A stretch of DNA of 64,000 nucleotides from Desulfatiglandales bacterium (GTDB lineage: Bacteria; Desulfobacterota; DSM-4660; Desulfatiglandales; Desulfatiglandaceae). The stretch covers positions 3,264,001 to 3,328,000 of the forward strand of contig OY762721.1 of NCBI GenBank assembly GCA_963666345.1. The letters are read 5' to 3'. Positions 1,848 through 60,457 of this stretch are shown here, one piece after another. Both the position numbers and the translations under genes were made by a program. How positions within the stretch are numbered: the stretch's first letter is position 1; each line of letters begins with the position of its first letter. Below the pieces are notes generated by a model that saw only the letters and a list, made by a program, of their open reading frames with translations, had not been told where the DNA came from and did no database searches.

Positions 1848-4800
1848 TCAGTAATCCCATTTCCAGTTTAGCCCGATACCGCCCTGTCCATTTTTCCCCA
1901 TGTCGGTCTCGACGGCAATATGGGGGGTTAGTTCTATCTCAACAGAGACTTTGCCCGTATCGGGACCCATGCCTTGTTCAACCTCCAAATATACATTATC
2001 CCTTATGTATTTCCCTGCGCTGACCGAAGGCTCACCGCTTTTATCATCCGATTGTTTTATGTTCAATTCATCCACACCTATAAGACTTCGAGTTCGATCC
2101 ATGAAACTAAACATACCACCTCCGCCCCTTAATGAATCTATTGCTTGCGCCAGCCTGAAGGCCTGAAGAGGGGTTATGTCGGTTGCACTCCGGCCGAAAA
2201 GAAGGTGGGCCATAATTTCATCCGGAGGCATCGGCGGGTCAGACTCCATATCCATTTTGAATGTTGAAAGGTCTCCAGATACGAGGATGCGGTAAGTTAT
2301 GTCAGAACTTTTGTGTTCAGCTATCGCGTCGAATTTAGTAGATGCGGGTGTGCCGCTATTCAAGTTGACTGATCCATTAGTAAGGGAAAAGGATTTTCCA
2401 AAAAAATTATAACGTCCGCGGATGACTGATAGCGAACCTGTAACAGCAGGTTGCTGTTCACTTCCTTTGATGCCGACTTTTCCCTTCCATTCCGAATCAA
2501 GACCTCGACCTCTGACAAAAACCTTTCCCGGAATTTCTAATAATATGTCGAGGTTTAACCTGCCTTTAGTCTTCAATGGCGGACTTCTTTTGGGCGGAGA
2601 TTTCTGAACTGGCATATTGATCTCTTTAATATTCAGGTCCCTTGCATCAGGAGGAAGGCTCTCGGGTATGCGAAGTGCGGCAGGTCCCAGAGTGAGAGAG
2701 CCCGAGACATCCATCCGCTCCATTGAACCGGATAGATCCAGTTTGCCACTTGTTGTAACCGTCAAATCATCCCTGCGAACAAGAGAGGCGTTATCCATTA
2801 GAAGTTCCAACTGGAAGGGCAAAAGCTTCTTTGGAAGCAAATTGATTGACCCTTTGGCAACAATCGTGCCCTTCTCCCCATCCGTTGCCCGGGCCTTTTC
2901 CAGAATGAGCTTGTCTTCGATCAAGCCGGCAACTATCTGTATGTCCTTTATTAGGGTTCCACTCCTGACATTTTCATATATCCCGTCGGAGAGTAAGACA
3001 TGGCCATTGAGTGAAGGTTTTTCCATGGTGCCATCAATGGCAAGATCAATCACCAGATTTCCTTTCAGTGTGTGATCTTCCAGATAAAAGAAGGAGGATA
3101 AATGCTCGAGTTCCATTTCAGCGAGAATTCGACCTTTTAATCCATCTTCTGATCTGAGAGAAAATACAAAGGGCAAAAAGGATAAGTCGACAGGTAGATT
3201 AAGGCCGGCCTTTAAAGGTTTATCCGCAAGATTTGCAAGGGTTAGATCTGCTTTAAGATCATGGTTTTTAAGGGTTATATGGGCTAAGAGATTTGCCGGA
3301 GGGAATTCTTCAGAGAGGGTGCCCTTGAATTTGAGTTTTTCAAGTTGAATATCCATGTCCGCTTTTGGACTTGTAATTAGGCCTTCTATGTGAAGCCGGG
3401 CCGTTGCCGTACCGGACACCTCTGGATACCCAAAGGCTTTCAGGAAAGAAAGAGACAGTGTATCGAGTCGGGCATCAAACGTCATTGTTTCAGATTCCAA
3501 TCTGCCGAATGCCTCAAGATGTCCATCATCCAATAGGAAATCAGCCCTTTCAAGGATGTAGTTCTCGGATATTTTCCGAATGACAACAGGCTCTCGCGCG
3601 GAAATCGTGAATTCCCCGAAATTGCCTTTCAACTGAGTCAGCCGGAGGTCATTGCTTCCGGGCATTAATCCGATAGAACCCGTGGTATCAAACTGAAATT
3701 CCTCCTTATAATACCCTTGGGCATGGGCTTTGAATGCCGCTTTTTCTTTTTGACCCTCGGCCTTCAAAATCATGTGACCGATTTGAAGCGCTTCCTTTTT
3801 GAAAGAATTTATCTCAACTTCAGCATTACCCTCAGGTGCCTGAAGAACATTTTTCAGGCTTAAACTTAATGTCAGTGCTTCAACGGCTCCGTATCCGGTA
3901 TCCAATCCCTTTCCTTGCAAATCAAGTGCTACATCCTGTCTTCCTCCGGCATCTGATAGAACGATATCAAATCGGGCATTTCCTTCAACCTTTTTGCCGA
4001 AAAGGGCAGAAAAGGATGCGAGATCAATGCAGCTGCCGCGTAATGCACCTTTTGAAGTATGTCGTTTAAGATCGATTTCGAGATCTCCTGTCATCTCAGT
4101 ACCAAGGGAGCTTGCTGAAAGGTCATTGAATGACAATCGGGGACTGATGAATGTGAAATTTGAAGCCGCCTTAAGAGAATGCCCTGGGCCCTGGATATGG
4201 ATCTCTAATTCACCTTCAGGTTCGTGGAACAAGTTTCTAGCCATTAAGGATAACTTGGCTTTGGAAACATTTATATGCTTTATGCGCAGATGGCTCAAAT
4301 CTGCCTGGGCGGTTATCTTGGGGTTTTTCAAGACTCCTCCCACATCTACTTCCATTTCAAATGCGCCATTGATGGGTCTTCCTAAGGTTTTTGAAAAGGC
4401 TGCCAACCTGGGAATGCGAATTAGTCCATGAGCCAAGATATCCCCGGCTGGAATATCAAGAGAAGCATCGGTTTCTATTTCTCCCACAACAGAGCTGATC
4501 GCCAGATCCGTTACTGTAAGGTGTCTGCCTTGCTCAAGTCTCATATGGCAGGCATACTTCAGATCCTCTTCCAACACAGGAGCAAGCGATTCCGGCAGCG
4601 GCTCAACTACGGCAATTTGACCCTTTATATCCGCTGAAAGACTCCGTGACTGGAGATTACCATTAAGATGGGCGTTCATTATCGCTTTGCCATGGACCTT
4701 TGTCCCGATGATATTTGATAGATTAGATAGGTCGTGTATCACCATTGAGGCATCTCCCTCAATGAAGGAACTTCTGGAATTCAATTGACCCGAGAAATGT

Positions 4801-14012: not shown

Positions 14013-14077
14013 GCCCAACAATCGGATGAACTTGAGCGGGCAAAACGACGCGCCCGCCAAGTTACCCGTACAATGGC
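14013..14077 (+). other. attC site 3 (R' box disrupted)
   Basis: GCCCAAC; cggatgaacttgagcgggc / gcccgccaagttacccg with two extrahelical bases; no GTT at the expected position. Confidence 0.7.
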
Positions 14078-14147
14078 GCAGGACGCTCCGCGCCTACGCC
14101 ATTGGCCCCGCGCATTATCACCCGAATGCTGTCCGGCGCTTCGCGCC

Positions 14148-14230
14148 GACCATCAAGCGGCTGCAACGACGGTCGCCCACGCGAGAAAACTCGTGCGTTC
14201 GCCCGCCGCTGATCCGCGGGGCCGTTCGGT
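14148..14230 (+). other. attC site 4 (closes a gene-less segment)
   Basis: gcggctgcaacgacgg / ccgccgctgatccgc arms; GTTCGGT; R'' degenerate. Confidence 0.65.
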
Positions 14231-14259: not shown

Positions 14260-14940
14260 ATGATGTCATGGGATGACTATCACTATTATCAACAAGAAGC
14301 CGCCATGGAAGAATTTCTTGAGCACGAGTTGCGTCGGATTTCCGAAGAGCCAGTGTTTTATTATTTAGCGGCATATGGTGATGCGATCGAAGAGCGCGTT
14401 AAACGCTGCCTAGATCAGGCACAATCCTTGAGTGACAGGGGATACCCTGGTGCTGCTCTCACTCGTGCTGCATCAGGGATTGAAGTAACAATTCGGTTTT
14501 TTTTAGCGCGTCCTCTGGTTCAAGGTGCATTTTTATCGGACGAATGGGCAGAGCTTTTATCTCGGAAATTGTTACACGGCCGTACTGCAGATGACAGAGA
14601 ATTACTCCCTGCCATCCTCCGCAACTGGAAAATGGATATAACCAGTATCAAGTTGTCGGATGGGTCTCAAGCATGGGAACAGATAGTTAAAAAAGTGTGG
14701 CCGAGCCGCAATAGCTATGTGCACAAAGCTGACGACACTTCGAATGAAGACGCTCTTCTTGCTATTGAGTGCCTGAAGATCTTGCTCTCTCAGGTGGTAG
14801 ATCCGATCGCAAAGAAACTTGGTTTCACGCGAGAACAGACTGGGTGTTGGTCAATAGTCAATGTGGAGAATCCCCCGGATTTTCCACATCTAAATTCTCC
14901 ACGGACTTATACCCGACAAGACCCGTTCCTGCCATTGTAA
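14260..14940 (+). CDS. Putative HEPN-domain protein
   Basis: Helical; AALTRAASGIE N-terminal motif and RNSYVH (Rx4H) motif; GGAG RBS. Confidence 0.6.
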   Translation: MMSWDDYHYYQQEAAMEEFLEHELRRISEEPVFYYLAAYGDAIEERVKRCLDQAQSLSDRGYPGAALTRAASGIEVTIRFFLARPLVQGAFLSDEWAELLSRKLLHGRTADDRELLPAILRNWKMDITSIKLSDGSQAWEQIVKKVWPSRNSYVHKADDTSNEDALLAIECLKILLSQVVDPIAKKLGFTREQTGCWSIVNVENPPDFPHLNSPRTYTRQDPFLPL

Positions 14941-14945
14941 GGATG

Positions 14946-15068
14946 GCACAACCATCGGGTGAACTTGAGCGGGTATAAATTGCGGTTGGCGTATTGGGCC
15001 GATTGGCCATTAGATTGGCTTTATATCAAATATTTTCTGAGCAACCCGCGAAGTTACCCGTAACGTTA
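14946..15068 (+). other. attC site 5 (R' split by the group II intron)
   Basis: GCACAAC...cgggtgaacttgagcgggt / acccgcgaagttacccg...GTTA|intron|GGC. Confidence 0.85.
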
Positions 15069-15840
15069 GCGCGCTAAGCGAAGCTAGGTGCATCTTGCAG
15101 GGTTAAAGTCCCTGTCGGGTAAGGGTTAGCCACCCACCCGTATCGAGTGTTGCGCCTGTGGAGGAGACGTGCGAAGCATGTCGAACAAAACAGGTGAAGC
15201 GTACACAGAGAATCATGCAGGCTGTAGGGGAGACCGTGCTCCCTGAAGTGCTGGTATCGCTTCGAGAAAAGCTTGTTCCCGGTCGCCGAGGGTTGTAACG
15301 CACGCCGAACGCAATACAAGATCATCCGTTAAAGGCGAGGATGTGAAGGACCGGCGGAGTTCTCAAGCCGTAGCATGTATGAAGAGATGTACACAAGAAC
15401 TTGGGAGGCCCACTCGACTCCTGAGGTAAATATGGGATGACGATATTGAGGCACGAAGGGGAAACCCGGACACAGGACTATGCGTAGCCCTAAGTTTGAC
15501 CTAAAGCAGGAAGGGGGACCGAAGCGGAAGTGGAGAAACCCTGGTCGTGTGGGAGTCGGATCAGGCATAGTACTCTGAGCGTGGGAAAGCCACGTACACG
15601 CCTTTACTAGGCATGGGGAAGGACCTGACGGAAGTACGCAGCCCGCAAAGGAAACTTATGCCGGACACGCAGGATCGGATTAACATAAGCAAACCTCACT
15701 GTGGGGAATAGCAATGCAGGAATTTAAACGTTAATTAAATTCGCTGTCACGGAAGCGAGTACAACCGAGGAGCCCCGTGAGGGAAAACTTCATGCGGGGA
15801 TCTGTGTGTGTGGCCGGGTAACCAGCATTCCTACCACGAC
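15069..15840 (+). mobile_element. ORF-less group II intron
   Basis: 5' GCGCG (GUGYG-like); domain V gagccccgtgagggaaaacttcatgcggggatc (15770-15802); domain VI ending cctAccacgAC; probable RT start remnant QTSLWGIA at 15690. Confidence 0.9.
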
Positions 15841-15967
15841 GGCTGGCTGAGAAAGTGATATTTATTTTTTTGGTGTAGCAACACATACTTGCGACGAGGT
15901 TGCACTTCGATTTTGGCAAAAAATCAAAACAGGCTTTATAAACAACATAGCCTTTGAGGAGGTAAGA

Positions 15968-16231
15968 ATGGGCGATAGCGCAGGGAAAGCAAGAATTTTA
16001 GAAAAAAAAGGCTTTTCTTATCATTTCAGTAGAATGATTTACATAAACAGTGAAAAGAGAAAGGTTTTTAGTCACGAAGCTATTGACGACAATCCTGTTA
16101 GCTGGCTCGAAGAAAAGATTAACGAAGCAAGCGACCCAAACGATTGGCAATTTTATTTTAACGAAACCATAGATGAAGAAATCAAACGTGACGTCTTGAG
16201 AGAAATAGCTCCAACCTATGTGAGGGGTTGA
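15968..16231 (+). CDS. Hypothetical protein (candidate antitoxin or partner of the downstream SAS-like gene)
   Basis: GAGGAGGT RBS; stop codon abuts the next ORF. Confidence 0.7.
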   Translation: MGDSAGKARILEKKGFSYHFSRMIYINSEKRKVFSHEAIDDNPVSWLEEKINEASDPNDWQFYFNETIDEEIKRDVLREIAPTYVRG

Positions 16232-16881
16232 GAAACATGGATCGAGAGATACGAAATAACTTAAGGGATGAATATTTTAGGCTTCTGCCAAATATAAGAA
16301 AAATACTCGAAGAGATGGAAGCTACTATAAGCTATGCACTTGTTTCAATAAAGAAGAAACTAAAAAACCATGAACATATAGAATTGCAGTCAAGAGTAAA
16401 AGATTGTGAAAGCGCAATAAACGCGCTCAGGCCACCAGGAGGAAAATTTTCGCCAGCTAAGGCTGGGGAATATTCATTGGTCAAATTAGAAGACCTTGCC
16501 GGTGTGAGAGTCTTGGTATTTCCACGACGACTTATTGAAGAGGTCGATCAACAAATATCAATGTCTTTGCCTGGTTGGACCCATAAGCCAATTAAACGTG
16601 ATAATGCTTCAGAAGAAATATTGGTGAACAAATATTTCGGACACATAGACACTAAAAATGAAATTTATGGTGAATATCAAATTGCACCTATGTTGTTAGG
16701 ATTATTTTGGCAAGTTGAGCACGCAGTTCTTTATAAACCCAGTTCTATACTAAAAGGTATTGAGACAGATTTTTTAATTCAAGCAAAGAGAGAGGCTATT
16801 TACACGGCATTTGATGAATTTGAAAAACGATTTGAAGATATGGTCACTTTGAATATTGAAAAGGGTTATTACAAGACATAG
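16228..16881 (+). CDS. Divergent RelA/SpoT-domain (small alarmone synthetase-like) protein; start may be ATG 16237
   Basis: SRVKDCESA, LEDLAGVRV, EYQI, WQVEHAVLYKP motifs. Confidence 0.7.
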   Translation: MRNMDREIRNNLRDEYFRLLPNIRKILEEMEATISYALVSIKKKLKNHEHIELQSRVKDCESAINALRPPGGKFSPAKAGEYSLVKLEDLAGVRVLVFPRRLIEEVDQQISMSLPGWTHKPIKRDNASEEILVNKYFGHIDTKNEIYGEYQIAPMLLGLFWQVEHAVLYKPSSILKGIETDFLIQAKREAIYTAFDEFEKRFEDMVTLNIEKGYYKT

Positions 16882-36854: not shown

Positions 36855-36930
36855 GCCACCGTAGCTCAGATGGCAGAGCACCTCACTCGTAATGAGGATG
36901 TCCGCGGTTCGATTCCGCGCGGTGGCTCCA
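36855..36930 (+). tRNA. tRNA-Thr (CGT)
   Basis: GCCACCG acceptor stem, CCTCA-CTCGTAA-TGAGG anticodon arm, GTTCGATTC, encoded CCA. Confidence 0.96.
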
Positions 36931-59868: not shown

Positions 59869-59934
59869 GCACCCAGTTTTCTTGACCCTTGTATGCCGGA
59901 AACACCCCTGTAACGCCGCAGGGTCCGACAATTT

Positions 59935-60115
59935 TCGAGGCAGGTCTTCTGACTCCCCCGCCCTTTTAGCTGCCTTCCCATCCCGATTTATCGAGACAGT
60001 GGCACACAATGGCTAAAAGAGTTCCCTTTTCAAAAGAAAAGAGCGGGGTTACAGCGGCGGGACCGTTCCCGAATTTAACGGGATTCCCTATTATGCCTTG
60101 AAAGGCACCTCAATT
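59935..60115 (-). ncRNA. Cobalamin riboswitch
   Basis: Minus strand aggtgcc...taatagggaatcccgtt.aattcggga.cggtcccgccgctgtaa...gccactg...gggaaggc...gagtcagaagacctgcc. Confidence 0.93.
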
Positions 60116-60457
60116 ATTATTTGATATTATTCCGGAACTGATGTGTCAAGGGTTTTTTGTAATGGAAGATAATATGCCGGAGGCGGACAATGAAAGTAAT
60201 CAGGGACTCCGGCACGTTATGGTCGATGGTATTCCATCTGTTAGGGCGGTGCTCTAAGGTATGGATAAAATTGCTTGTTGACTTTAAAGGCCTGACGACG
60301 TTATTGATCATATGATGCAGGATGGGTTGTAATCCTCTTTTATTTAGTCCTTGAAATCGGAGATATTTATCTAACTGAGTTCATCTTTTGTCGTAAGATG
60401 AGGTCATTTTTTCTCAGGCCGGCAAGGTCTAATTCTTTTAAGTAAAGAAAGTCTGTA

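Follow-up and report, generated by a model that had tools for sequence, protein, structure and literature searches.

The present analysis concerns a group II intron and the site it occupies in 64,000 nucleotides of the genome of a Desulfatiglandales bacterium (contig OY762721.1, positions 3,264,001 to 3,328,000; hereafter the window). The surroundings of the intron, from 11.7 to 19.7 kb of the window, hold short same-strand open reading frames (ORFs), including TIR, AbiJ-N and Phd/PIN genes. No integrase gene was found near the intron, and the integron integrase gene of this genome (TIGR02249, 472 bits) lies at 1359039-1359980, about 1.9 Mb away. Because short same-strand ORFs and attC-like sites occur here with no integrase nearby, we read the region as an integrase-less attC cluster, i.e. 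a cassette array. Features of the intron and its insertion site are collected in Table 1. Elsewhere in the window there are a cobalamin riboswitch (59922-60127, minus strand, 100.2 bits) and a tRNA (36855-36927, plus strand, 67.1 bits).

Table 1. Positions, within the window, of the intron, its parts and the site that it splits.
Feature	Position	Strand	Remarks
ORF-less group II intron, 772 nt	15069..15840	+	Starts GCGCG, ends AC; ends placed by alignment to L044, L045 and L260
Domain I core (Rfam RF02005, group-II-D1D4-6)	15105..15369	+	105.2 bits, gathering score 49, E 9.6e-29, full model 1-225
Id3 hairpin bearing EBS1	15285..15312	+	Rfam model and consensus fold; compensatory changes in both stems
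EBS1 (UAACG)	15296..15300	+	Single occurrence, Id3 loop, covariation
IEP gene remnant (codons 2-33 of L045 protein)	15533..15628	+	72% identity, one TGA and one TAG
Domains V and VI	15768..15840	+	RF00029, 32.6 bits, under the gathering score of 40, E 0.00031
attC-like site, 5' part	14946..15068	+	R'' GCACAAC 14946-14952; L'' 14956-14974; L' 15044-15060; GTTA 15065-15068
IBS1 (CGTTA), final five 5'-exon bases	15064..15068	+	Reverse complement of TAACG
GGC, 3' part of split R' core	15841..15843	+	G15841 is the presumed IBS3

The site that the intron interrupts has the core elements of an attC site. Its R'' deviates at one base from RYYYAAC, and R' reads GTTAGGC, fitting GTTRRRY, once the intron is removed. 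In a DNA fold of the joined exons L'' pairs with L' to give a predicted imperfect hairpin with unpaired bases (constrained fold of -16.6 kcal/mol over 119 nt). A strict search for RYYYAAC...GTTRRRY with a fold cut-off returned no plus-strand match in the window, because the intron splits R', and a 13-nt L'' motif with two mismatches allowed was uninformative, with about 140 scattered matches. The R''-L'' part of the site has a sibling at 14013-14045 (85% identity over 33 nt), which belongs to an attC-like R''-L''-L' hairpin (14013-14075) that has no GTT core and runs into a GC-rich repeat of 155 nt (14073-14228; 64% GC versus 38-42% in the cassettes). This repeat has five further copies in the genome at about 86% identity, four of them on the opposite strand at 1351363-1358688, beside the integrase gene, and probably makes up the attC family of the chromosomal integron. 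With GTTCGGT as its R', the repeat mismatches the EBS1 of the intron at position -1.

Excision of the intron joins ...CCCGTAACGTTA to GGCTGG and restores GTTAGGC as GTTA/GGC, where the slash marks the insertion point, with CGTTA directly preceding GCGCGC at 15069. Placement of the ends is ambiguous by one base, because 15069 and 15841 are both G and shifting both ends by one gives the same joined product; the ends chosen preserve the rule of a 5' G and a 3' AY. Compared with the 5' GUGYG and 3' AY boundaries the window copy reads GCGCG...AC, and relatives begin GUGCG, UCGCG, GAGCG or UUGCG. The domain I core structure of a group II ribozyme is present, as RF02005 is matched over the whole model; papers naming the Rfam D1D4 families do not state the intron class behind D1D4-6. 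Domain V of the window copy has the AGC triad, and domain VI a CUAC-type bulged A. Beside the triad there is G.A instead of the usual G.U, likewise in the relatives, and the helices of domain V are retained through compensatory changes. There is no plus-strand ORF of 50 codons or more between 15069 and 15967, so that of an intron-encoded reverse transcriptase/maturase in domain IV only a remnant is left. The intron is present once in its own genome.

An earlier note on this DNA had drawn attention to TAACG as a candidate EBS1 on the grounds that it is the exact reverse complement of the last five exon bases, which the sequence bears out, and had proposed that the position of the Id3 loop be modeled. 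The RF02005 covariance model aligned 15294-15302 to the Id3 terminal loop, and an RNAalifold consensus of 43 relatives gave the same hairpin, with 17 predicted pairs of which 11 had compensatory changes, so that two approaches place TAACG in that loop. The consensus fold has a base stem of 15285-15287 with 15310-15312, a distal stem of 15290-15291 with 15305-15306, and a loop extending over about 15292-15304. Thus TAACG does sit in a hairpin loop of domain I as the note had it, but the stem drawn there, gggttg with cacgcc, gives way to a shorter conserved one, in whose base stem the window copy has lost one pair (C15287 opposite C15310). In the window copy EBS1 and IBS1 form five pairs only, exon position -6 being an A that faces C15301. 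TAACG occurs once in the 772 nt of the intron, where composition predicts 0.77 occurrences, and the expectation within one given loop of 9 nt is about 0.005. For EBS3, comparison of copies whose 3' exon starts with T and with G turned up no column that changed between A and C/U in the expected way.

Covariation between the loop and the exon was assessed in intron copies in which the Id3 segment could be located by pattern (53 of 93), of which 50 non-redundant ones were scored; the 40 unscored copies comprised 19 that were too short and 21 of at least 480 nt that the pattern missed. Five or more contiguous pairs anchored at exon position -1, with G.U allowed, were found in 41 of the 50 copies and six or more in 29, and background windows from the same introns reached five pairs in 11.8% of 1251 instances. 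When the splice site was shifted the count fell from 41 at the proposed site to 30 at -1, 23 at +1 and 4-14 at larger shifts. Compensated states with changes on both sides were CAACG with CGUUG (L142, L123), GAACG with CGUUC (L048), UAACAA with UUGUUA (L209), ACGUUG with CAACGU (L050, L109) and ACUCUU with AAGAGU (L154), and exon position -6 also covaries with the loop. In the 50-row alignment of exon and domain I all six EBS1/IBS1 pairs had changed on both sides, with 87.3% of cells paired. The whole-structure covariation score was 0.516 against 0.140 in shuffles (0 of 500 as high), a control that is to be read with the caveat that kin sequences may beat shuffles without any structure; the slid-partner control is free of that weakness, and partners slid by 1-3 columns scored at most 0.081. 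The covariation in homologues that the earlier note had named as a check was therefore found, as 41 of 50 copies are paired and two-sided changes occur at all six pairs. Nine of the 50 copies had fewer than five anchored pairs (L145, L181, L214, L150, L157, L189, L198, L200 and L211). At the 5' junctions of L145, L181 and L214 introns stand head to tail in tandem, so that the 3' end of a further copy takes the place of the 5' exon; such an arrangement would follow from renewed targeting of the 5' junction of a resident intron.

Relatives of the intron are widespread. RF02005 introns were found in 67 of the 151 related genomes searched and matches to the intron by BLAST in 29 of 209 genomes of the order, with near-full-length relatives (L044, L045 and L046) at 87-92% identity. 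A 34-nt IUPAC pattern, run on a species-representative genome collection, recovered at least 125 matching stretches, 80 of which were taken for analysis, and the matches listed came from many phyla, among them Desulfobacterales, Gammaproteobacteria, Bacteroidota, Chloroflexota, Acidobacteriota, Nitrospirota and Ignavibacteriota. Since this pattern lies wholly inside the intron (positions 3-36), conservation of the target is not built into the search. Even so, 70 of the 82 distinct 5' flanks ended in YRYTN, mostly CGTTA; among these 70, position -1 was A in 58, G in 10 and C in 2, and position -5 was C in 63 and T in 7. Positions -6 to -24 carried at most 0.53 bits each. That the flanks share just their last five or six bases indicates that the insertion sites are different ones.

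The joined R' cores were GTTA/GGC in the window, GTTG/GAC in L044, GTTG/GCG in L045 and GTTA/TGC in L260. In a sister branch 18 further distinct 3' exons began with G (9), T (8) or C (1), and a sub-branch with a 3' exon starting in T gives GTTAT rather than GTTRR. In L045 the 3' exon begins GCGCGCCAA (bases 3454-3462), which repeats the opening nine bases of sister introns and may be left over from a copy that sat there earlier. Other RF02005 subfamilies share a different 5' flank, GGGGACGTCC(A/T)G (L022, L027, L029, L032, L037, L075, L078, L093 and L095), and the branch of L050 and L109 is located in AACGT/CCCCCATTA, the reverse complement of that motif, so that two intron branches may use one repeat on opposite strands.

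Whether flanks of relatives resemble attC sites was judged with a crude home-made fold test, in which AAC/GTT pairing was forced and a helix of at least 8 pairs had to start no more than 8 nt from each core. Flanks ending in GTTN were attC-like on this criterion in 36 of 65 cases (55%), compared with 28 of 392 (7%) for random CGTTR sites from the intron's own genome, and constrained fold energies differed between flanks and controls (Mann-Whitney p = 1.2e-10). Together with the predominance of YRYTN, these counts agree with the suggestion in the earlier note that CGTTR, as found at R' boxes, offers a base-pairing route to many cassette junctions.

The window copy itself has lost most of the gene for its protein. 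The deletion corresponds to about 652-1915 in the coordinates of the L045 intron, and the same deletion is shared by the window copy, L044 and L260, at three different sites in three genomes, from which it follows that the ORF-less form has moved or spread. In L045, domain IV encodes a protein of 486 residues (TIGR04416, 343.8 bits) with RVT_1 as its sole Pfam match and group_II_RT_mat over residues 83-449; Pfam gave no endonuclease/HNH match, as is characteristic of the endonuclease-less proteins of class E. Against solved structures it scored 142.8 bits with LtrA and 118.8-126.3 bits with class C enzymes. No cognate protein was found in the intron's own genome, the one intact group II protein there sharing 35% identity with that of L045. 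Lacking its own enzyme gene, the window copy has no unaided mobility; it is a deletion derivative and probably immobile now. When reads and contigs of four public runs were compared with 14700-16300, contigs from two sediment metagenomes were identical across the 5' junction; none of the contigs joined 15068 to 15841, and they speak neither for nor against splicing or an empty site.

The same genome carries a second ORF-less RF02005 intron (L002, bases 1466-2139, about 3645121-3645794 of the genome; 182.6 bits). It splits an aminotransferase class I/II gene (PF00155) whose joined exons form an in-frame ORF of 365 residues, and the exon ends in UCUUUGA, with which the Id3 loop of this intron (CUUCAAAGA) pairs. 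ORF-less introns within bacterial housekeeping-type genes are rare according to a review (PMC4424553). A truncated fragment related to this intron lies at 854762-855003 on the minus strand (RF02005, 40.6 bits, below the cut-off).

We observed a loop in the Id3 position, its pairing and covariation with the exon, a conserved target, and enrichment in attC-like hairpins, and we consider it very probable that TAACG is the EBS1 of a group II intron lineage that targets the CGTTA of the attC R' core in sense orientation. During reverse splicing, UAACG would pair with CGTTA, the end of the 5' half of the R' core, and such pairing would set the intron at GTTA/GGC, with the same strand and orientation as the cassette genes. 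The substrate may be single-stranded or replicating DNA. A contribution of the hairpin or the protein to the choice of site is suggested by the fact that no second pairing (IBS2) is conserved, and ORF-less copies may be mobilised by the protein of a relative. The lineage as a whole is widespread and barely described, with an endonuclease-less protein that looks class-E-like, and its members have kept the loop and hit the same base of attC-like hairpins.

The simplest alternative is that the five-base match arose by chance and that the true EBS1 lies elsewhere in domain I. Five bases are indeed few; with wobble allowed, TGACG at 15438 and at 15626 of the intron could pair with CGUUA too; and the local hairpin is weak in single-sequence folding, the isolated Id3 hairpin having -5.1 kcal/mol with 187 of 200 shuffles folding equally well (z of +1.23), with a single-sequence fold of domain I that is itself uninformative (z of -1.15). 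The match nevertheless falls in the very loop that the Rfam model assigns as Id3, loop and exon covary in relatives, and the slid and shifted controls collapse, which makes coincidence highly improbable. A different matter is how far the pairing of EBS1 with CGTTA accounts for the preference for attC. There are 4091 CGTTA sites and 345 CGTTAG sites in the intron's own genome, so that the pairing alone cannot explain it, and to this extent the targeting route of the earlier note, although it fits the relatives, is incomplete, five pairs being insufficient for attC specificity. We lean somewhat towards specificity that comes mainly from the folded hairpin, or single-stranded attC DNA, recognised by the protein or the ribozyme, with EBS1 fixing the exact base. 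Consistent with this are the 55% of insertions in attC-like hairpins against 7% of controls despite so many available sites, the low information at positions -6 to -24, and the copies from one genome (L144, L191, L212) that have a common Id3 segment and yet differ in the bases upstream of -6. Such variation would suggest that the hairpin plays a part, as it does in class C introns, and that an IBS2 pairing does not. Hairpin recognition is reached indirectly, and it has to accommodate the 29 of 65 flanks that failed the crude attC test and at least one close relative (L049) that, read by eye, seems to be inside coding sequence.

Acceptance of TAACG as EBS1 leaves room for the view that the window copy is a dead relic, in which the match between EBS1 and IBS1 records a past insertion and which today neither splices nor moves. 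The copy is single and has no ORF, just a remnant with stops; its genome has no cognate protein; two of its private substitutions, at 15086 and 15310, break helices; and no spliced or empty-site joint was seen in the four public runs. Yet its private changes (11 in the first 600 nt) are within the range of 0-65 among relatives, its RF02005 score is close to the 108-110 bits of the nearest relatives, domain V has kept both its AGC triad and, by compensation, its helices, and copies with the same deletion stand at three sites, so that the deleted form has moved. On balance we regard the relic as a possibility of the lesser sort. It could also be asked whether the intron is simply a member of the known group IIC-attC (S.ma.I2 and relatives), with which it has in common homing to attC-like sites, a short IBS1 with a hairpin upstream, the lack of a conserved IBS2 and a protein of its lineage without an endonuclease domain. 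According to PMC7923331 and PMC3001079, however, IIC-attC introns are of class C and enter the bottom strand at R'' (TTGT/T), so as to run against the transcription of the cassettes, whereas the window intron is in the top strand inside R', sense with the flanking ORFs, as is its lineage at GTTR/RRY. The present lineage moreover matches Rfam D1D4-6, and the relatives' protein is no closer to class C enzymes than to LtrA and by eye resembles class E fragments in the printed supplement of PMC7923331. Membership in IIC-attC can hardly be entertained.

In our literature search Sonbol and Siam 2021 (PMC7923331) was the sole report found of non-class-C introns in cassette arrays, and no description was found of an EBS1 paired to the attC R' core; in Toro and Martinez-Abarca 2013 the terms attC and integron are mentioned 0 times. 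PMC7923331 describes H.ha.F1 and H.ha.F2, 5'-truncated class E fragments in a CALIN of Halorhodospira halochloris, which share with the present lineage an endonuclease-less protein (class E in their case), an integrase-less cassette array and attC-like structures upstream. They are without domain I, so that no EBS1, IBS1 or exact insertion point is described for them there, whereas the window copy is complete at both ends and has no ORF. The L045 protein is about half identical to some 200 C-terminal residues of H.ha.F2, compared by eye with the printed supplement, and this likeness makes the protein of the lineage look class-E-like, which we take as a lead rather than a result. The same source also has UHB.I2 from a cassette array of a soda lake, a IIB1 intron that encodes a CL1 protein and follows directly on an attC site. 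It resembles the window intron in its cassette-sense orientation and its position directly at an attC site, but by eye its printed 5' end and protein differ from those of the present lineage, and its flanking exons are poorly conserved where the 5' exon end of the present lineage is strongly conserved. For the window intron, the class E fragments look closer than UHB.I2.

In print, attC-targeting group II introns are almost solely class C, bottom-strand and antisense, and a review assigns site-specific homing to every lineage except class C (PMC4424553). Our broadest proposal, which we hold to be about as probable as its opposite, is that a second lineage with no relation to IIC-attC has specialised independently in parasitising integron cassette arrays. 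It would combine a fixed EBS1, UAACG, with recognition of folded attC and insert in the top strand inside R'; it would hence be in sense, could be spliced from cassette transcripts and would travel with the downstream cassette, while gutted copies would be mobilised in trans and have spread over many phyla. If true, a sense-strand, R'-splitting lineage changes how cassette boundaries in environmental integrons are read, could freeze or tag cassettes, and offers a natural case in which a short guide sequence works together with the recognition of DNA structure. The original observation is confirmed and its reading supported: the element belongs with the attC-homing group II introns.
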